DNA from: Eremomyces bilateralis CBS 781.70
Taxonomy: Eukaryota
NCBI GenBank assembly: GCA_010015585.1
Contig: ML975149.1
Direction: 5' to 3' (one strand)
Length of the DNA stretch: 64,000 nucleotides
The notes below the pieces were generated by a model. The model did no database searches, had not been told where the DNA came from, and saw nothing but the letters and a program-made list of their open reading frames with translations. Below, in pieces: positions 4,293 to 42,720 of the stretch; position 1 is the first letter of the stretch; every line of letters starts with the position of its first letter. A program made the position numbers and the translations under genes.

Positions 4293-5558
4293 ATGGAGCG
4301 TCAGATTACGCCAGATCGGCCGATTAGGCGCGAGGAATATACTACAATCCAAAAATCGAGGTTTTTCGAAGCCTATGATAGCCGTACCGCAGATCAACCA
4401 TTGTCAGACATCCTCCGCAAGCTCGACCTCCCTCGGCGTACAGCAAATTACTGGCTTTCTCAACGCCGTCGTATTGGAAAAGAGGCTTACCGACGAACGC
4501 GCCCTAACAGCGACCGATTAGGGCGACGCCGCGCTATTACATCTCCTCAGTTAGATGCTATTGTATCTTCACAGAACCCTATAAGAGAGCTTCCATATGA
4601 AGCGAATATCACGCATTTCAATCTCGATATTACAACCGGTCGCGCCCTCCATAACAATCTAAAAGATCGACGGGATGCAGGCCGTTTCGTTGAACAGCAG
4701 GGGAAACCCGTTTCTCCTCGGAATCGCAGGCTACGGGAGGACTATGGCCGCTTCGGAAGAGAACAACCTCTTATCGGCTATTGAGACTCAATTGAATTTA
4801 CAGACGAGATGCACTACGATCCTTCGGAGCAGCCGAAACAGTGAATTATACGCCAAAAAGGTACACGTTATAATTCGGAGAATCTTCAAAAGCGGCCGCA
4901 GAAAACGGGCGTTGCACTTCATATTGCTGCGTCTTGCAATTGGTACTCAAAGAGCAGTCTTATCTTCTATCACGACAAGTCTGAGGATCTTCCAAAACCA
5001 CGAAGGCCTAGAAAGCCTAGGCAAAAACAGACTGAGACAGACGAACAGTTCCCTTCTAGATTGCAAGAGTGGAAGGCAAGAATACCTCACGAGATTCAGG
5101 TCAAACGGAAGGGGAATTCTATGACCCAGGAGCATTATGCTAAGCATATTCTCCCAGCCTATATCGCGCGTATTGAGGCTGCTCGTTTATACCACCGCGG
5201 ATCGTTCGGTGCTGACGTCTGTGGACCATTTATGATGTTACAAGAGGATAACGATCCATCGCACGGTACACAGTCATTTAACGTCGCGTCGGCATTAAAA
5301 CATGCCCATTGGATTACATGCATAAAGCATCCACCACAATCCCCAGACCTAAACCCGATTGAAGCACTTTGGGGGATCCTAAAGCAGAGTGGACGCAAAC
5401 GGGTATGGCGATCGATTACGGAGCTGAAGCAAGTCCTAATTGATGAATGGGACAAGATCTCAATGGAAGAGGTACGCGCTAGGATCGCAGAGATGCCGTC
5501 TAGATGTCAATTACTTGTAGATAGCAAGGGGAACATCGTAAAAACTGCGCTGTGGTAA
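4293..5558 (+). pseudogene. DDE transposase interrupted by two in-frame TGA codons
   Basis: One frame from ATG 4293 to TAA 5558 with TGA at 4782-4784 and 4842-4844; catalytic D (4803), D (5247), E (5361), with 37 residues between the second D and E. Confidence 0.9.
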
Positions 5559-36066: not shown

Positions 36067-39000
36067 ATGCAATCCCGACGCGACTTATCACCCCCTTCTC
36101 CGGTGCATACGTCTCCGAGAGACGACCGAGGTCGAGACTCTGACCGTGGTGGGATCGTGTCGCCGGGTGAGACTCTATTTGGGACGCCGTCTTCGACAAG
36201 GACACTTGCACATTCGAGTCCGGATCTCCCGCCTCTGCCAGCGTTTCCGATATCTGGAGCTTTGCCTTCTACACCGCCACGGACTTCGAACGACGACAAG
36301 AAATACTTCACTGCAAGTTGGGGATCACCATATCAAGCTCCGGATCCAAGTAGTGGACGACGAGGGATTGCGCCTGGGAACTGGACAGCGAATAGCGACG
36401 ACTTGGACGACGAGTCTTCTCCGAATCTACGTTTCGGACTTTCTCACCTTATACCGTCAAGGTTGCCGACCTTCCAAGTCACCCCTACCCGTCCGAGTAC
36501 CCCTTCCAGTGGGGTTGTAACGGACCAGACGCCTCGCTCGTTGAACTTTGCACCCAGCATTTTCACTAAAAGACCCGCGCGTGTCACTTCGCTGGTACCT
36601 GTTCGCGAGCATTCACCTTTCGAGGAGGAACCGGATTTGTGGGTGCAACAAGGCAACGAAGAATCAATACCATCGTCCCCACCTTCCGACCCTCTCGCTC
36701 GATATCAAAGACATAAATCCCGAGACAGTAACCTGACTCTCACACCGGAAGACTTTTGGGAAATCGGTCCCATTGGAAATCAAGTCGGCAACATGCATAA
36801 GTCTAGGTGGGCCAACCCTGACTCCTCGTCAGCGCCGAAGTCTATGGGATCGTCGGAGCCGAAGCGTCAAGATACAATGGAGTCGGAGAGGAAAGCCCCA
36901 GCTCTAGCTAGGTCGGAAGCACTGCCCTTACCCCGACAGGAGACGGAGTCGCCTGCTTCTTCCAAGGGCAGTATTCAGCCGAGACAGAGGAAGAAGATGC
37001 AAGTGAAGGGGAAGTCGTGTTTTGTGATGCTCCCAAGCATCCACGATAACCGAAACCCCATGAAAGCGGAGGAAATTGAAGCCCGCATGAAGCGATTTCA
37101 AAGCCATGGATACGACACGCGGGGCTATGTTGAGTATTACAAGAGCGATACCATTGCGGAGCAGAGCGGTCACACACAAGATCGTGCGGTGATCCCAGGA
37201 TTGACTGATGATCATGGCGACAAAGCCCCGGCCAAGCTCCAGGTTGTTTTCCCAGACCTAAACAGATGGAAATCGCATATGGAGGCCTTTCGAGAGGCGA
37301 AATTGGCAGCCTTGGGCGTCACCGTTGGTGGAGATTCACCTCAAGAGTCACAGCCGTTGTCCCGTCAATCTTCATCTCAATACCGCCCCTCTCAATTCTC
37401 TCCCCCTGTACCTTCGACCTCCGCGACTAGCAACCGGATGAGCTTCCAGGGACCTAATCTTCCGGCTGCATTCACACCCGGGTCATCCAACCATACGTCC
37501 ACGCGATCGATCGCATCGCCGATGTCGTCTCTTGGAAACCCTCGTTCTGCAATGCATATGCATCGTCAATCGATGTATGCGTCTCCCACCATGTTTTCAC
37601 AGGGACAGCCGGTTTCACCCGCCCTTTCAGGCTGGCCACAGCAACCATTCCATGGTCAGCAGCTATCAAGAGGCGCGTCTCCAGCCCATTCGGGGTCTCG
37701 ACCCGCCATTCAGGACGGCAGATCTTCCGGATCTCCGTTCAGCCCACACGGCGAGCTCCCGGGCGGTTTTGGCTATCCTGGAGATTTGTTGGCAGGCGTT
37801 CAACAACGACAGCAGCATCATCTTCAACTGCAACAACAACAGCAGCAACACCTGATGCAGCAGCAGGCAAAGCAACAGGCGCTGAGTGGTGTACGGTCAC
37901 CCCCCGCCCTCGAAGGGGTGCCTGAAGTCGATAACGAAGGCGAAACTGTGGATGAGGGTTTGAAAACCCCACTGGTGAAGAAATCAGAGCCGGAAATCCA
38001 CACGCCAAAACCCGGCCATCGTCACAACATCAGCGTCAATTTAGAACGGAATGTGCATAGCGCAGGCTACAAGCTAAACGATTATATCGCGCGGGACCTT
38101 GCTGAAGAAGTATCTGAAGACTCGATGGAATCGTCGCAGACGAACGCATTCGGACCAAGCATACCTACTGATCCCAGCTTGCTGCCGGTCCATCGTCCTT
38201 CGCTTCAGGAACTGCGCTCGCCGCCATCAGGATTGAGCCCCGACCTACCGGATCGCTCACACTCGACCAACGAGCTGCCGGAGCCAAATCACGTGAAGTT
38301 CTCCTCTCTAGCGGCGACTGCGGATTCCGAGAACGAGCGCGATGAAAAGGATGAAGAAAAAGATCATGCAACGGACGAGACGAGGACGAACCCACCACCA
38401 GGTCCACGACATGCTCACATGCCGTCTCATGTGACAAGTGTTTGGAGCGAAAGCGACTCGGTCATGGAAAGCTTGGCTTCGCAGCACAGTGAAGGACAGA
38501 AACAATCCAACAACCACTCCAAGCAGTCTTCCGTCTCGAAATTCAATGTGGAAGCAAAGGAGTTCGTGTTCAACCCCAAGTCCTCATTCAACCCCGGGAT
38601 TTTCTCTCCAGGTCTCTCGTTCCAGCCGAAAATCGTCAAGCCATTTGGCGGCTCCGATAGTCCCAGTAGCGCATTGACGCAAACCACAAAGTTCAACATC
38701 GGTGCCCCGAGCTTCGCGCCGCGAAATGGCGAGAGAAATGGAGAATTCAGCTTCACCTCGCGTGGCCCCGTCTTCAAACCGGACGCTCCGGTCTTCGAGC
38801 CGTCGAAATCCTTCGCTTCCAACTCATCCGTCACCGGGGACGAGAATCGGATTTTTACCAATCTCGCCGATGCCGTCAGGCCGCCGAAGAAGTCGAAGGC
38901 TGTTCCGATTGTCAAACCCGTGTCTCGTGGAAAATCTGCCCCAGATGAGGAGGAGGATGAGAAGGAGCACTTCGACGCTTTTGATCGGCTCAGTCAGTCC

Positions 39001-42000
39001 GATGCGAGGTTCAAGCGCTCGAAGCGGTGGGACGATGGCGACCAAGTTCCACTATTCGCAATTCCCTCGTCGCCACCAGTTGTTGCTCAGCACCAACACA
39101 GCATTTCTTCGTTCCAGGAGGCAATAGATGACATTGACGACTCCGTTCTGGATGGAGACAAGGTCGAACATCATTCGGAAACTGAGAAAGCTCCCAAGAA
39201 TGTGAAGGAAACCAATGTTGCAGGTGAAGACGAGACCAAGACCTTGCAAGAGGCCGCAATCCTTCATGATAGTGGGTTCCAGGACGGATCGCTACATTCG
39301 GATCCTTCCAGACGCCTAGACGAGGCCCCAGTCGATGTCACCGAAGATCCAGTTGATGTCACCGATGTGAGGGAAGCTGTGCAGCCATCGTTACTCGGCC
39401 ACGCCAAGCAATTCTCCCTCTCTGCTGCGGCCAAACCGTTCGAATTCAAGCCGTTCTCACCCACCGCGCCGGCCTTTTCTCCTGGTATTGCGAGAACGTC
39501 AGTATCCTACCAGCCGCGGACGAGCCTCGGTGATGATCATACCCCGATTGAGAGCGGCAACAGTCATCTCCAATCGCCCACCGAAGTTCATCATCCGGCA
39601 CCTGCGCTGGAACGTTACATACCAAGCACGGAAGATGAATATCACCCATCTTTCAATGAGATCGACGCTGTCATGAAACACATGGATGAGGAGGGCTCGG
39701 ACTTCGGCGTGGAACGGGACGAAATCTCTTATGTGCAGTATACACCGGAGAAGACGTCCGCCATCGATGTCAACCGAGCAGATCTGCCTCCGACTCACTT
39801 CCGTAGTGATGCTCCCAGCCCTAGTCCCCGCCGTGTCAATTACCAGCGACAATATCGCGCCGACGATGGGTCGAATTCTGATTCGTTTAACGACGAGCGC
39901 AACGCTATTCCCTACGCGACACCGATCCACAAGCTCAACGACGCTGCTGACGTTCCAGTCAGCGATTGGGACGACATGGTTTCTTCGACTGAAGACGACA
40001 AGCTTCACGCCCGGAGTACATTCTTCGACAGCCACGTGGAAGAATTGATGAACGCTGCCCTGACGGCTCGCCTTGACCCTCTCACTCAGACTCTCGCTGC
40101 CATTCAGAACTCAATGGCAAGCTTTAACACCAGCCCCTACCCGCGACGTGGACGACGGGTGGTCTCTAGTGAAGCCATCGACAGCGATGCGGATGATGAA
40201 GATGAAGATGACGAGATTCCATTGGACTTGGGCCGCAGTCGCTCTCCGAGGAAAGATCGTCGGTTCGAGAAAATCAAGAACGTCGTGTTGGAGGCCATTG
40301 AGTCAAGAACCCCACCGGTTGCGCAAGCATCTGCCGCGCCCGCCGCTCCATTAGATCTCTCTGAGATCCAGGACGCCATTGCCAGCGTCAAGGAGACGAT
40401 GTTCCACCTGAGCGATGTCAAAGATGTCGTCGAAAACGTGGTCGGAGAGATCTTCGAGCGAAAGCAGGCTTCCGACCAGGACACCACGGCCTTGTCGCTC
40501 AAAGATGATGGCGAGCGTTATGCAAACTTGGTCAATATGATGAACGAATCGAACTCTCGTCTTCTGGAGGAGAAAGCGGCTCGTTCAAAGCTGGAAGCGC
40601 AACAAGCAGAGACACAACGTGCGTTGAAGCTTGCGGAGGAGGAGGTTGTTCTCCTTCGAGCTTCGGCCGAAGACGATGCGGATCGCTATCGGGCTCATGA
40701 TGCTGAGGCCCAACACTTGCGATCGAAAGTCGCTGCAACCGAAATCATGCATGATGACTTGAAGGTGGCTTCATCCGGTCTCAAGCAACAGGTTACTGCG
40801 TTAGAAGCCACTCTGGAAGAGTATCGCACGTCAAGCGCCCAATGGAGAGACGAAGTCGATGCACTCCGCGATGAGAAAGAAGCTCTCCGGAAGACGTTGG
40901 AGACGTTTAAGTTCCAGACCGAGGAGGCGATGCGCATCCGCGAAAACATGCGAGACAGACTCAACACCCTGCGGAAGGACATGACCACTGCCGCCCGCCA
41001 AATGGGCGATGAGAAGACGAAGTGGCAGCGTAGCGACGATGAGCACTGCAAGCGCTACGAAGTATTGATGGCACGGCTTGGTGCGGAGGCAAGGACGCGG
41101 GAGCGACTGGAGGATGAGCTGGAGCGACTGGAGAAGCAGGAGCGGGAAGGCATGAAGCTTCGCGTGCTTCTTGAGCAGGCTCAGAACGCAAACGCGAAGC
41201 TCGAGGAGACGGTGGACGGGCTGCGTCTGGAGTCCGCAGAGCATCAGAAGACGGCGGATCAATATGCGAGGGAGTTCCGCGAGGCTCGCGAGGCGGGACG
41301 GAACGAGGTCCAGCGGACACGCATGCTGATGGAGGCTCAACTGGATGCCGCGAGCAATGAAGTCAACATTGTGCGAGCGGACCTGGAGAGCGAGGTTTCT
41401 CGCGTTCGTGCGGAACTTGACCATGCTAGGATGGAAGCCGATACTGCGAAGGAGAAACATGAACTTGTCTTGGAGGAGGAAGCGGATACTCGAAGGGACG
41501 CTTTGCACGAAGCCACCGTGAAGATGGACGCGACGTTGCAGGAGCAGACAGCTCGTTATGAGCAACGAATTGCCGACTTCCAGCAACAACACCAGCGATA
41601 TCTGCAGAATGCGCTCGAGGACAAAGAGCGCTCGGAAGCATTCCTCAACGAGAAGCTTTCTCTCGCCGATTCAAAGGCCAATCACCTGCAGGACAAGGTG
41701 GTTCTTCTGGAGGAGAGGCTTGAGGTTGCCAAATCCGCAGCTCAAGCCGCCATCGAGGCCGCAAAGTCAGCCAAAGCGCCCACTACTGCACCGGTTGAAC
41801 AATCCACGACCCCTCGAATGCCAGAGAAGGTATCGGCGCAAGCACTTCGGGAAACAATCCAGGCGCTCCAGGAGCAGCTACAAGAACGCGAGACCCGCAT
41901 TGAGACGCTCGACAAGGAGCTTTCCGAAGTCGACCAAGAGGCTCCCGCCAAGCTTAAAGAACGCGAAACCGAAATCGGCTGGCTCCGTGAACTCCTCGGT

Positions 42001-42720
42001 GTCCGCGTTGACGACATCTCCGACCTCATCAACACCCTGGCCGACCCGACTTTCGATCGAGAATCCGTTCGCGACGCCGCCATCCGCATCCGGACGAACC
42101 TCCAGATGGAACAGCAAGTGAAGGAGCGGATCATGGCGGGTAGTATGGCTTTCCCCAGCCTCGCCAGTATCTCCAACTTCGCGACCCCGAAAGCCGCCCA
42201 GCTTGCCGCGGCGTTTGGGAATTGGCGGAAGGGAAGCCAGGCTCGACAGTTCAGTATCGCCTCGAACGCGTCTACTGCTACGGACTCAACTCCGTCGAAG
42301 TCGCTCTCTTCGGCGCAAGGATTCCTTTCGGGCCTCATGACACCGCCTGCTTCGAACGTGAGACGAACACCCTCGCCTAATGGCACGGTGATCGCGCACA
42401 GGCGAGGAAGCGTCCGTCCCGGATCCTCCGCGTCAGCTGTGGAGCTACGGACACCTCGACAACGCGGTAAGGCGCGCATGAATCCGCCCACCACCCCGCC
42501 ATTGATGCGACGTGACTCTTACGACACGGATGCGCAAGCGAGCAGCTTCCCTTCCGGGCGCTTCGAAGACGACGATGCAAGCAGCATTGGCGGGTTCGTG
42601 CACGACGAGAAAAGGCAGCCGTTGGACGAGTTCGGGCCAGCCATGGGTGAATCGGAAGCAGACGCGGAGACATACTCGCCGGCGTTCGTCTCGCCCAGAC
42701 GAACATCACATACAGACTGA
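36067..42720 (+). CDS. 2,217-aa protein: disordered N-half with polyQ and about 5 PAM2-like motifs, long C-terminal coiled coil, no motor domain
   Basis: Single uninterrupted ORF; heptad-rich E/R/K/L region at about 40500-42130; motifs FNVEAKEFVF, FNIGAPSFAP, FKPDAPVFEP, LSAAAKPFEF, FSPTAPAFSP. Confidence 0.9.
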   Translation: MQSRRDLSPPSPVHTSPRDDRGRDSDRGGIVSPGETLFGTPSSTRTLAHSSPDLPPLPAFPISGALPSTPPRTSNDDKKYFTASWGSPYQAPDPSSGRRGIAPGNWTANSDDLDDESSPNLRFGLSHLIPSRLPTFQVTPTRPSTPSSGVVTDQTPRSLNFAPSIFTKRPARVTSLVPVREHSPFEEEPDLWVQQGNEESIPSSPPSDPLARYQRHKSRDSNLTLTPEDFWEIGPIGNQVGNMHKSRWANPDSSSAPKSMGSSEPKRQDTMESERKAPALARSEALPLPRQETESPASSKGSIQPRQRKKMQVKGKSCFVMLPSIHDNRNPMKAEEIEARMKRFQSHGYDTRGYVEYYKSDTIAEQSGHTQDRAVIPGLTDDHGDKAPAKLQVVFPDLNRWKSHMEAFREAKLAALGVTVGGDSPQESQPLSRQSSSQYRPSQFSPPVPSTSATSNRMSFQGPNLPAAFTPGSSNHTSTRSIASPMSSLGNPRSAMHMHRQSMYASPTMFSQGQPVSPALSGWPQQPFHGQQLSRGASPAHSGSRPAIQDGRSSGSPFSPHGELPGGFGYPGDLLAGVQQRQQHHLQLQQQQQQHLMQQQAKQQALSGVRSPPALEGVPEVDNEGETVDEGLKTPLVKKSEPEIHTPKPGHRHNISVNLERNVHSAGYKLNDYIARDLAEEVSEDSMESSQTNAFGPSIPTDPSLLPVHRPSLQELRSPPSGLSPDLPDRSHSTNELPEPNHVKFSSLAATADSENERDEKDEEKDHATDETRTNPPPGPRHAHMPSHVTSVWSESDSVMESLASQHSEGQKQSNNHSKQSSVSKFNVEAKEFVFNPKSSFNPGIFSPGLSFQPKIVKPFGGSDSPSSALTQTTKFNIGAPSFAPRNGERNGEFSFTSRGPVFKPDAPVFEPSKSFASNSSVTGDENRIFTNLADAVRPPKKSKAVPIVKPVSRGKSAPDEEEDEKEHFDAFDRLSQSDARFKRSKRWDDGDQVPLFAIPSSPPVVAQHQHSISSFQEAIDDIDDSVLDGDKVEHHSETEKAPKNVKETNVAGEDETKTLQEAAILHDSGFQDGSLHSDPSRRLDEAPVDVTEDPVDVTDVREAVQPSLLGHAKQFSLSAAAKPFEFKPFSPTAPAFSPGIARTSVSYQPRTSLGDDHTPIESGNSHLQSPTEVHHPAPALERYIPSTEDEYHPSFNEIDAVMKHMDEEGSDFGVERDEISYVQYTPEKTSAIDVNRADLPPTHFRSDAPSPSPRRVNYQRQYRADDGSNSDSFNDERNAIPYATPIHKLNDAADVPVSDWDDMVSSTEDDKLHARSTFFDSHVEELMNAALTARLDPLTQTLAAIQNSMASFNTSPYPRRGRRVVSSEAIDSDADDEDEDDEIPLDLGRSRSPRKDRRFEKIKNVVLEAIESRTPPVAQASAAPAAPLDLSEIQDAIASVKETMFHLSDVKDVVENVVGEIFERKQASDQDTTALSLKDDGERYANLVNMMNESNSRLLEEKAARSKLEAQQAETQRALKLAEEEVVLLRASAEDDADRYRAHDAEAQHLRSKVAATEIMHDDLKVASSGLKQQVTALEATLEEYRTSSAQWRDEVDALRDEKEALRKTLETFKFQTEEAMRIRENMRDRLNTLRKDMTTAARQMGDEKTKWQRSDDEHCKRYEVLMARLGAEARTRERLEDELERLEKQEREGMKLRVLLEQAQNANAKLEETVDGLRLESAEHQKTADQYAREFREAREAGRNEVQRTRMLMEAQLDAASNEVNIVRADLESEVSRVRAELDHARMEADTAKEKHELVLEEEADTRRDALHEATVKMDATLQEQTARYEQRIADFQQQHQRYLQNALEDKERSEAFLNEKLSLADSKANHLQDKVVLLEERLEVAKSAAQAAIEAAKSAKAPTTAPVEQSTTPRMPEKVSAQALRETIQALQEQLQERETRIETLDKELSEVDQEAPAKLKERETEIGWLRELLGVRVDDISDLINTLADPTFDRESVRDAAIRIRTNLQMEQQVKERIMAGSMAFPSLASISNFATPKAAQLAAAFGNWRKGSQARQFSIASNASTATDSTPSKSLSSAQGFLSGLMTPPASNVRRTPSPNGTVIAHRRGSVRPGSSASAVELRTPRQRGKARMNPPTTPPLMRRDSYDTDAQASSFPSGRFEDDDASSIGGFVHDEKRQPLDEFGPAMGESEADAETYSPAFVSPRRTSHTD

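Follow-up and report, generated by a model that had tools for sequence, protein, structure and literature searches.

In Aspergillus nidulans, peroxisomes, Woronin bodies and messenger ribonucleoprotein (mRNP) particles carrying SsdA and FabM all need PxdA to hitchhike, PxdA being an early-endosome hitchhiking tether that was described in 2016. In this study we analyzed a gene on the plus strand of a 64,000-nucleotide stretch of Eremomyces bilateralis CBS 781.70 (contig ML975149.1, assembly GCA_010015585.1), the whole of which is called the window below. [quoted passage not shown] We favor, with moderate confidence, a reading in which these motifs hold poly(A) mRNPs on endosomes via Pab1.

PxdA is the 2236-residue product of pxdA (AN1156), and its published layout consists of an uncharacterized N-terminal region (residues 1-1465), the coiled-coil segments CC1-3 (1466-2116) and a short tail (2117-2236) (Salogiannis et al., 10.1101/034231). 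The protein is found on motile early endosomes, and CC1-3 is both necessary and sufficient for endosome localization and peroxisome motility (10.1101/034231). A conserved hydrophilic patch in CC3 (residues 2034-2058) has been described in which the R2044P change abolishes endosome association (Songster et al., PMC10295486). The phosphatase DipA is a partner of PxdA. No co-precipitation with PxdA was seen for AcbdA, the receptor on peroxisomes. Endosome localization and the requirement for peroxisome hitchhiking have been demonstrated in Aspergillus only. In a survey of 33 fungi, PxdA homologues were reported from 15 out of 15 Pezizomycotina and from none of the others, and the N-terminal extension was said to have "no discernible conserved domains" (Songster et al., PMC10295486). 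A preprint of April 2026 on SsdA reports that FabM-containing SsdA mRNPs need PxdA and DipA for their motility on endosomes; it leaves undecided whether PxdA or DipA contacts mRNP components directly, draws bridging factors in its model, and regards PxdA and Upa2 as lineage-specific proteins with no relation to each other (10.64898/2026.04.14.718127). No PxdA truncation was found in the text of that preprint as available to us (10.64898/2026.04.14.718127).

The other closely comparable system is that of Upa2 in Ustilago maydis (UMAG_10350), a protein of 2121 residues with four PAM2-type motifs and a disordered N-terminal part. One PAM2 motif lies right at the N-terminus and a central triplet lies within residues 834-1216; an effector region spans residues 339-599 and the C-terminal coiled coil dimerizes. 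A terminal GWW is essential for endosomal shuttling, for which the last 163 residues suffice. Upa2 works together with Rrm4 and Upa1, and its binding to endosomes depends on RNA binding by Rrm4. According to Müller et al., Upa2 occurs only in Basidiomycota and Rrm4 is most likely absent from Ascomycota. Because both are missing there, the attachment of mRNPs to endosomes in filamentous ascomycetes calls for an explanation. The PAM2 consensus is xxLNxxAxEFxP, of which the Leu and above all the Phe enter pockets of the MLLE domain; in the related PAM2L type the Phe follows an acidic stretch, the spacing is FxxP and an additional Tyr is close by, and PAM2L is not bound by the Pab1 MLLE (Devan et al., PMC9249222). 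Affinities reported for PAM2-MLLE pairs range from 0.2 to 40 uM (PMC9249222). The only MLLE proteins described in the same paper besides Pab1 are UBR5 and those of the Rrm4 type (PMC9249222). Most PAM2 proteins have a single motif, with two in eRF3 and Tob according to the Upa2 paper. As for PxdA itself, our search of the literature on PxdA or AN1156 together with PAM2 found, among the papers listed, one sentence on such motifs, in a preprint by Kumar et al. (July 2026), which mentions "PAM2L" motifs in the disordered N-terminal region; a search for "PAM2 motif" with Pezizomycotina found only a paper on LARP proteins.

The identity of the gene in the window was established through its relatives. 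A word-indexed search with the window protein retrieved 559 relatives, the best 120 of which all came from Dothideomycetes and were at most 44% identical. A phmmer search with residues 1018-2217 against 1.84 billion representatives outlined a sharply bounded family: of 328 matches at E≤1e-3, as many as 307 also passed E≤1e-10, and 280 passed E≤1e-30. One of its members, a Penicillium protein (P0167; phmmer E 2.5e-174, 31% identity to the window protein over 2054 aligned columns), was used as a query in turn and led to P0370, a protein of 2236 residues deposited as [quoted passage not shown]. Its C-terminus (...DGPFGPQIA) equals the hand translation of a tagging primer given in PMC8101442. BLASTP aligned the window protein to P0370 with 34% identity over 1509 columns (E 3e-160), colinear along residues 814-2186. 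The gene in this window is thus an ordinary PxdA orthologue. A first-pass annotation, made from the letters of the window, had proposed an unrecognized system of mRNP transport in filamentous ascomycetes. Since the protein belongs to the characterized PxdA family, and the SsdA preprint already reports PxdA-dependent mRNP hitchhiking, the system cannot be called unrecognized. The interpretation as a whole is partly supported, being partly right about the mechanism, silent on the identity with PxdA and overtaken by recent preprints; its statement that machinery of the Upa2 type is regarded as missing from ascomycetes agrees with the literature cited above.

The family has a database name of its own. 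PF26916 is the precomputed family on the listed relatives and is also entered for the window protein; in the ESM Atlas its name is DUF8275, which was the sole yield of a search there that gave no informative neighbor. A literature search for DUF8275 or PF26916 found nothing. DUF8275 can now be linked to a characterized protein, PxdA. Relatives were listed for the best 150 of the 328 phmmer representatives, mostly without names; the named ones among the matches listed were all Pezizomycotina (Dothideomycetes, Eurotiomycetes, Lecanoromycetes, Sareomycetes and Vezdaeales) save for one labeled Quercus suber.

The layout of the window protein follows that of PxdA, with a long disordered N-terminal region, a coil and a short tail. 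Coil and disorder were called from composition and periodicity. A long alpha-helical coiled-coil region is predicted at about residues 1490-2025 (about 535 residues; 40534..42141, + strand), aligning to AN1156 residues ~1500-2064. There is a proline-free run of 476 residues (1429-1904), the amino acids E, K, R, Q, D, L and A make up 0.54-0.84 of each 50-residue bin between residues 1501 and 2050, and hydrophobic residues recur with a 3.5-residue period at up to 11 times background. Composition and periodicity fit a coil of about 500 residues, as the first-pass annotation had it, and by alignment this coil appears to correspond to CC1-3 of PxdA (A. nidulans residues 1466-2116). Such a coil, together with the name "Myosin class II heavy chain" carried by many orthologues in UniRef and NCBI, might suggest a structural coiled-coil protein resembling the heavy chain of myosin II. 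This is improbable in the extreme: neither the full-length protein nor any of six pieces gave a Pfam match to a myosin head or motor family, no myosin family came up in the Pfam scans of other family members, and DUF8275 (PF26916) is the only database family. Myosin II heavy chain identity was accordingly rejected as refuted by the missing motor domain, and the widespread annotation of the PxdA family as myosin class II heavy chain is wrong; both the absence of a motor and the ease with which such proteins are mislabeled had been anticipated in the first reading. No Pfam family at all exceeded its cutoff in the whole window protein or the six pieces, and the PDB gave no match for the whole sequence (E≤1), for a 30-residue piece around the first PAM2 motif or for a family profile (E≤0.01).

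The patch of the coil whose mutation releases PxdA from endosomes in A. nidulans is conserved. The CC3 patch FDRESVRDAAIRIRTNLQMEQQVKE (residues 1996-2020; 42052..42126, + strand) aligns to A. nidulans residues 2034-2058, the patch with R2044P. In an alignment of 26 diverse sequences, which is the basis for all residues called invariant or nearly invariant in this study, R2007 and M2014 of the patch are invariant and V2001, D2003, A2005, I2006, N2011, L2012, Q2013, Q2016, E2018 and E2020 are nearly so. We report the patch instead of a residue number because the aligned Arg is R2045 in the numbering of the database sequence P0370, one off the published R2044.

The N-terminal region contains a feature that may bear on mRNPs. 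The pattern [LF]-[NSK]-x-x-A-x-x-F-x-[PF] has exactly five matches in the window protein, at residues 826, 876, 903, 1118 and 1130 (nucleotides 38542, 38692, 38773, 39418 and 39454), just where the first-pass annotation had placed five motifs. When the whole protein was shuffled 5000 times, 4932 of the shuffled sequences lacked the pattern and 68 had it once; when residues 781-1180 alone were shuffled 5000 times, 4957 lacked it and 43 had it once. Since the shuffles never gave more than one match, five are far beyond chance. Motif 1, SKFNVEAKEFVFNP (residues 824-837; 38536..38577, + strand), is matched, though below the cutoff, by the Pfam PAM2 model PF07145, and its A830 and F833 are invariant. 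Small hidden Markov models, one per motif, were run on 379 family members of at least 1500 residues and matched motif 1 in 362 of them, the PAM2-type motif 2, TKFNIGAPSFAP (residues 874-885; 38686..38721, + strand), in 186 (counted at E≤1e-3), the PAM2-type motif 3, PVFKPDAPVFEP (residues 901-912; 38767..38802, + strand), in 287, and the PAM2-type motif 4, FSLSAAAKPFEFKP (residues 1116-1129; 39412..39453, + strand), in 243. Motif 5, FSPTAPAFSP (residues 1130-1139; 39454..39483, + strand), is lineage-specific: among 28 aligned Dothideomycetes most relatives read a SGFDFGLHVTKPS-type sequence in its place. It was therefore rejected as a family feature, so that four of the five motifs proposed at first are conserved in orthologues and the fifth is not.

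At the position of the window's motif 5, following motif 4, most Dothideomycete orthologues have a conserved segment SGFDFG.HVTKPS. Peptides of the FGDF type bind NTF2-like domains of the G3BP type, and this segment of the relatives could be another short motif related to mRNPs.

Conservation of motifs 1-4 extends across the family. At least one pattern match was found in 378 of the 379 members, P0189 having none, and at least two were found in 120/120, 109/125, 13/15 and 118/119 members of four sets (the word-indexed relatives of the window protein, the phmmer representatives, a set including the Penicillium protein P0167, and the relatives from the search with P0167). These sets are dominated by Dothideomycetes and by Aspergillus and Penicillium, and therefore the counts weigh those groups. 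Across the 28 Dothideomycete proteins of that alignment, motifs 1-4 rise above flanks of low conservation, with motif 1 at an identity of 0.60 per 25-residue bin versus 0.2-0.3 in the flanks. The family logo of motif 1 reads L86/F12-N95-V95-x-A100-K75-E90-F100 followed by P96 (numbers are percentages of members), and over at least four classes this motif is close to invariant. Those of the others read [LF]-N94-V86-x-A97-P92-x-F98-x-P89 (motif 2), F88-[NK]-[PV]-D67-A94-P91-x-F93-x-P96 (motif 3) and L98-S97-A86-x-A99-K74-P90-F99-E83-F89-[KR]-P88 (motif 4). In AN1156 the motifs are SSLNVEAKEFAP at residue 831, RLNVAAPSFTPG at 878, SLNVAAPEFNPG at 915 and ALSASAKPFSFKP at 1110.

To the eye of the Pfam model, too, PAM2 is the family that recurs. 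Of 23 full-length members chosen from across the family, 13 gave a PAM2 match at E≤1, the best of them at 1.9e-7, and no other family was matched in more than three. In a second set the model matched six of 12 members, three of them over the 20-bit cutoff (27.3 bits in Aspergillus unguis, 25.4 in Aspergillus egyptiacus and 27.1 in Cladophialophora immunda); for AN1156 the score, at residues 827-842, is 19.9 bits. By its logo, motif 1 follows the PAM2 consensus xxLNxxAxEFxP, and none of the features of PAM2L is seen in the family logos of motifs 1-4, which places the motifs, as far as such patterns can tell, in the Pab1-type PAM2 class and not in the Rrm4-type PAM2L class. Beyond what is in print, then, the motifs appear to be of the Pab1-type class, and four positions for them are conserved family-wide. 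The receptor side, the Pab1 MLLE, is present in this lineage: the Pab1 proteins of Dothideomycetes such as Patellaria atrata and Coniosporium apollinis, found via a metagenome contig matching the pattern of the KITGMLLE helix, have this helix intact.

Several points weigh against a role for these motifs in holding mRNPs. Only motif 1 of the window protein reaches the PAM2 model, its 30-residue piece scoring 18.4 bits (E 0.0017), which is under the cutoff of 20 bits, and the pieces of motifs 2-5 gave no match (0/4). Motif 1 of the window deviates from the consensus twice, with Phe for Leu and F-x-F-x-P for F-x-P. No PAM2 match was found in 10 of the 23 and six of the 12 full-length members, and motifs 2-4 would be PAM2 variants, candidate sites only. 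Tandem repeats of the DAPAFKP type are seen in Pleosporales orthologues and could have arisen as repeats expanded within a disordered stretch, and not through selection for Pab1 binding. The name used by Kumar et al. for the motifs of PxdA is PAM2L, not PAM2. Peroxisome hitchhiking in A. nidulans does not require the N-terminal region, as the coil alone (residues 1466-2116) rescues (10.1101/034231), and A. nidulans PxdA lacking residues 1-816 is functional; the motifs therefore have no role in the best-known function of PxdA. Finally, Upa2 with all four of its PAM2 motifs mutated showed no phenotype, which means that conserved PAM2 arrays can be redundant.

In light of these points, an alternative is that the protein is a PxdA orthologue whose PAM2-like motifs act without Pab1, either by binding another partner or as stickers for solubility or condensation, while mRNPs are attached via separate bridging factors. 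The lack of Pfam matches for motifs 2-5, the Pro in place of the consensus Glu in motifs 2 and 3, the missing Leu-Asn of motif 3, the tandem DAPAFKP copies and the dispensable N-terminal region would all be expected, as would the bridging factors drawn in the SsdA preprint. PxdA and AcbdA did not co-precipitate, so indirect links do exist in the hitchhiking system. This alternative leaves unexplained that the L/F, N, A, E and F of motif 1 are kept at 90-100% in 362 of the 379 members, which span four classes or more, that Pfam PAM2 is the sole recurrent family (13/23) and exceeds its curated cutoff in three of 12 orthologues, and that identity per 25-residue bin is 0.6 in the motifs versus 0.2-0.3 in the flanks. 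Other MLLE proteins that might serve as the partner are, in the paper cited above, only UBR5 and those of the Rrm4 type, and Rrm4 is reported absent from ascomycetes. We therefore regard motifs that act without Pab1 as unlikely, though as an explanation to be kept in mind.

Under the reading that we favor, in which the motifs engage Pab1, the coil and its CC3 patch would place the protein on motile early endosomes together with DipA, as experiments in A. nidulans suggest. The MLLE domain of Pab1 would be the target of the four PAM2-type motifs, each of which would fill two hydrophobic pockets with its Leu/Phe and its invariant Phe in the usual manner of PAM2. If the coil dimerizes, as demonstrated for the coil of Upa2 and not for that of PxdA, each molecule would offer up to eight low-affinity sites, and the protein could act as a multivalent clamp that keeps poly(A) mRNPs on moving endosomes. 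Our confidence differs among the parts of this proposal. It is probable that at least motif 1 binds the Pab1 MLLE in vitro; whether such binding matters for mRNP hitchhiking in vivo we rate as slightly short of an even chance. Given that the motifs lie in a part of PxdA that peroxisome transport does not require, Phe-to-Ala changes in the four motifs should uncouple mRNP hitchhiking from that of peroxisomes. By analogy, the protein plausibly works like Upa2 of Ustilago. Membership in the Upa2 family is not demonstrable, and by the terminal GWW it fails: no GWW is present at the C-terminus of the window protein (which ends ...SPRRTSHTD) or in the 12-residue tails of 120 orthologues.

Outside the motifs and the CC3 patch, further blocks of the protein are conserved. 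The N-terminal block at residues 305-425 (36979..37341, + strand; conservation profile, the 26 aligned sequences and an alignment of 15 named taxa) has the consensus ...WRGKxCxIxLP...GYDxRGF...RVxIPD..WEAYV..L.EEKLRALGVS, is conserved in every class sampled and has E410, L413, A415, L416, G417 and V418 invariant. It has no Pfam match and may be a small folded domain inside the "uncharacterized" N-terminal region of PxdA. Its coordinates are about the same as those of the effector region of Upa2 (residues 339-599). A tract at residues 579-604 (37801..37878, + strand), where the family consensus is Q-rich too, had been taken for polyQ (37801-37880) in the first reading; the position is correct, and the tract is better called Q-rich than pure polyQ, with 16 Q among its 26 residues and a longest run of six. 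A basic block follows at residues 926-951 (38842..38919, + strand; consensus KIFG...IVKPxKKSKAxPIxRP), with F930 and S943 invariant and I929, K944, A945, I948 and P951 nearly so. The block before the coil (residues 1299-1379; 39961..40203, + strand) reads SDWDD...FFD...RLxPLE plus the invariant acidic run SDADDE, with S1299, L1336, P1338 and S1373-E1378 invariant.

After the coil comes a Trp motif, LAAAFGNWRKG (residues 2046-2056; 42202..42234, + strand), with the family consensus AAAWGNWRKG and the logo W54/F34, G95, N86, W98, R99 and K88. It was matched in 363 of the 379 members, with W2053 and R2054 invariant. Its AFGNWRK (residues 2049-2055, nucleotides 42211-42231, 169 residues from the C-terminus) was seen in the first-pass annotation, where the similarity of GNW to GWW was considered. 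We rejected GNW as an equivalent of GWW by which membership could be decided, the motif being internal, and keep it as a conserved motif of the family. Farther on, a tail block TPSK...GFLSGLMTPP (residues 2075-2095; 42289..42351, + strand) has G2089 and P2094 invariant and T2075, P2076, S2077, L2090, T2092 and P2093 nearly invariant, and a C-terminal FGP motif (residues 2189-2191; 42631..42639, + strand) is common to many orthologues in forms such as FGPGL and FGPQI, A. nidulans ending in ...DGPFGPQIA.

The gene itself is a single intron-free open reading frame (ORF) of 2217 residues at 36067-42720 (+ strand), closed by TGA at 42718-42720 and with an in-frame TGA immediately before its ATG. 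Residue 1 aligns with the N-termini of orthologues, which makes this model complete without any intron, and the complete coding sequence of the PxdA orthologue (36067..42720, + strand; 2217 residues plus TGA) is supported by the ORF, the N-terminal alignment and the BLASTP match to AN1156 (P0370). Its neighbors in the window, namely a DUF726 protein, a CLC channel, choline kinase, a CHD1-type remodeler, Nuf2 and uridine kinase/uracil phosphoribosyltransferase (UPRTase), are ordinary fungal housekeeping genes, and the GC content of the window is 0.48-0.62 per 2-kilobase bin. Among sequencing runs, no RNA run is listed as containing the stretch, and one run of uncertain type does contain it. Antisense ORFs of up to 279 residues overlap the region coding for the coil, e.g., 40831-41670 (- strand); most likely these are not genes but a consequence of how biased the codon content of the coil is. 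Elsewhere, an ORF at 4845-5558 (+ strand) matches only the C-terminal part of the model for the DDE_3 transposase domain (E 2.2e-9) and is probably a transposon remnant.

Some database entries of the family call for comment. P0198, a member of the PxdA family, and P0414, a Pab1 resembling those of Dothideomycetes, are deposited as proteins of Quercus suber (cork oak) and are probably fungal contaminants of a plant assembly. Fusions to an upstream neighbor occur in database models: PF07690 (MFS transporter) is included in six of 120 Dothideomycete entries and PF00332 (glycosyl hydrolase 17) in 11 of 120 Aspergillus/Penicillium PxdA entries, the fused models being 2470-3384 residues long. These are likely annotation mergers, and they hint at conserved gene neighborhoods which the window does not have. 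In Patellaria atrata, the longest contig is 2,321,667 bases for both the PxdA orthologue (P0006) and Pab1 (P0504); the two genes may lie on one scaffold, probably by coincidence.

The likeness to Upa2 leads to a further explanation, namely that a single ancestral multi-PAM2 scaffold on the endosomes of Dikarya gave rise to both PxdA and Upa2, which would be orthologues that have moved beyond recognition by BLAST; the window protein would then be the Upa2 of an ascomycete in the literal sense. Sizes are similar (2217-2236 versus 2121 residues), both proteins have a disordered N-terminal part, and the PAM2 cluster at residues 824-1129 of the window protein and 831-1110 of AN1156 can be set beside the Upa2 triplet within 834-1216. 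In both, the determinant for endosome targeting lies in the C-terminal coil or tail and the motifs are dispensable for the phenotype described first. The conserved AAAWGNWRKG in the PxdA tail could be counted here as well, as could the complementary distributions reported (Upa2 in Basidiomycota only, PxdA in Pezizomycotina only), and Songster et al. leave a sequence-divergent PxdA homologue in U. maydis possible (PMC10295486). On the other hand, BLAST searches reported in the literature, run from either protein, gave no match; the GWW at the terminus is missing, and the Trp motif is internal, FGNW in the window protein and roughly 165 residues from the end; the N-terminal PAM2 of Upa2 is absent from the PxdA family; and endosome binding by Upa2 needs RNA binding by Rrm4, which ascomycetes lack. 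A coil, a disordered region and short motifs are also easily reached by convergence. Common descent of the two proteins thus appears improbable to us. If it were true, the PAM2 array clamping Pab1 would be a direct link loading poly(A) mRNPs onto endosomes in Pezizomycotina, and the hitchhiking of peroxisomes and of mRNA would share one adaptor across most filamentous fungi.

Set against the systems known, and with the PxdA orthology and Pab1-binding motifs that we favor as the starting point, the protein compares as follows. Its motifs are short Phe-centered peptides of the PAM2 class, as are those of the PAM2L type in Upa1 and UBR5, to which Rrm4 MLLE3 or the UBR5 MLLE binds, and PAM2L is the name used in the only printed remark on the motifs of PxdA; the acidic stretch, FxxP spacing and nearby Tyr of PAM2L are absent from the PxdA-family logos. 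With classical PAM2 proteins (Paip1/2, eRF3, ataxin-2, GW182, LARP4 and Upa1) it would share a motif of the form xxLNxxAxEFxP in a disordered region, the key Leu, Asn, Ala, Glu and Phe of motif 1 being 86-100% conserved in the logo. It differs from them in that the PxdA family has four motifs, of which motifs 2-4 are variants (AP-x-F-x-P and LSAxAKPFEF).

PxdA (AN1156, and AfPxdA, Afu1g11450, in Aspergillus) is the closest counterpart, with full-length colinear homology, 2217 versus 2236 residues, a coil of about 535-650 residues, a long disordered N-terminal region, a short tail, the CC3 patch around the endosome-release mutation and four PAM2-type motifs at matching positions (826/876/903/1118 versus 831/878/915/1110 in AN1156). 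Differences are found in the 34% identity, in motif 1 (Phe for Leu and FxFxP for FxP), in the Trp motif (FGNW in the window versus WGSW in AN1156) and in the extra unconserved fifth motif. What is known of localization and function comes from Aspergillus.

Upa2 was compared by description only and differs in several respects. Published BLAST gave no homology to PxdA in either direction, the window protein has no terminal GWW and the PxdA family no N-terminal PAM2, and the coil of the PxdA family is much longer. The partners of Upa2 are Rrm4 and Upa1, of which Rrm4 is most likely absent from ascomycetes, whereas PxdA has DipA as partner and also carries peroxisomes and Woronin bodies. What the two have in common is a size of about 2100-2200 residues, four PAM2-type motifs, a disordered N-terminal part, a C-terminal coil, endosome association via the C-terminal part and PAM2 motifs that are dispensable for the first-described phenotype. 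In this, and beyond what we found in print, the layout parallels that of Upa2 closely enough to justify a profile-based test of homology between the two.

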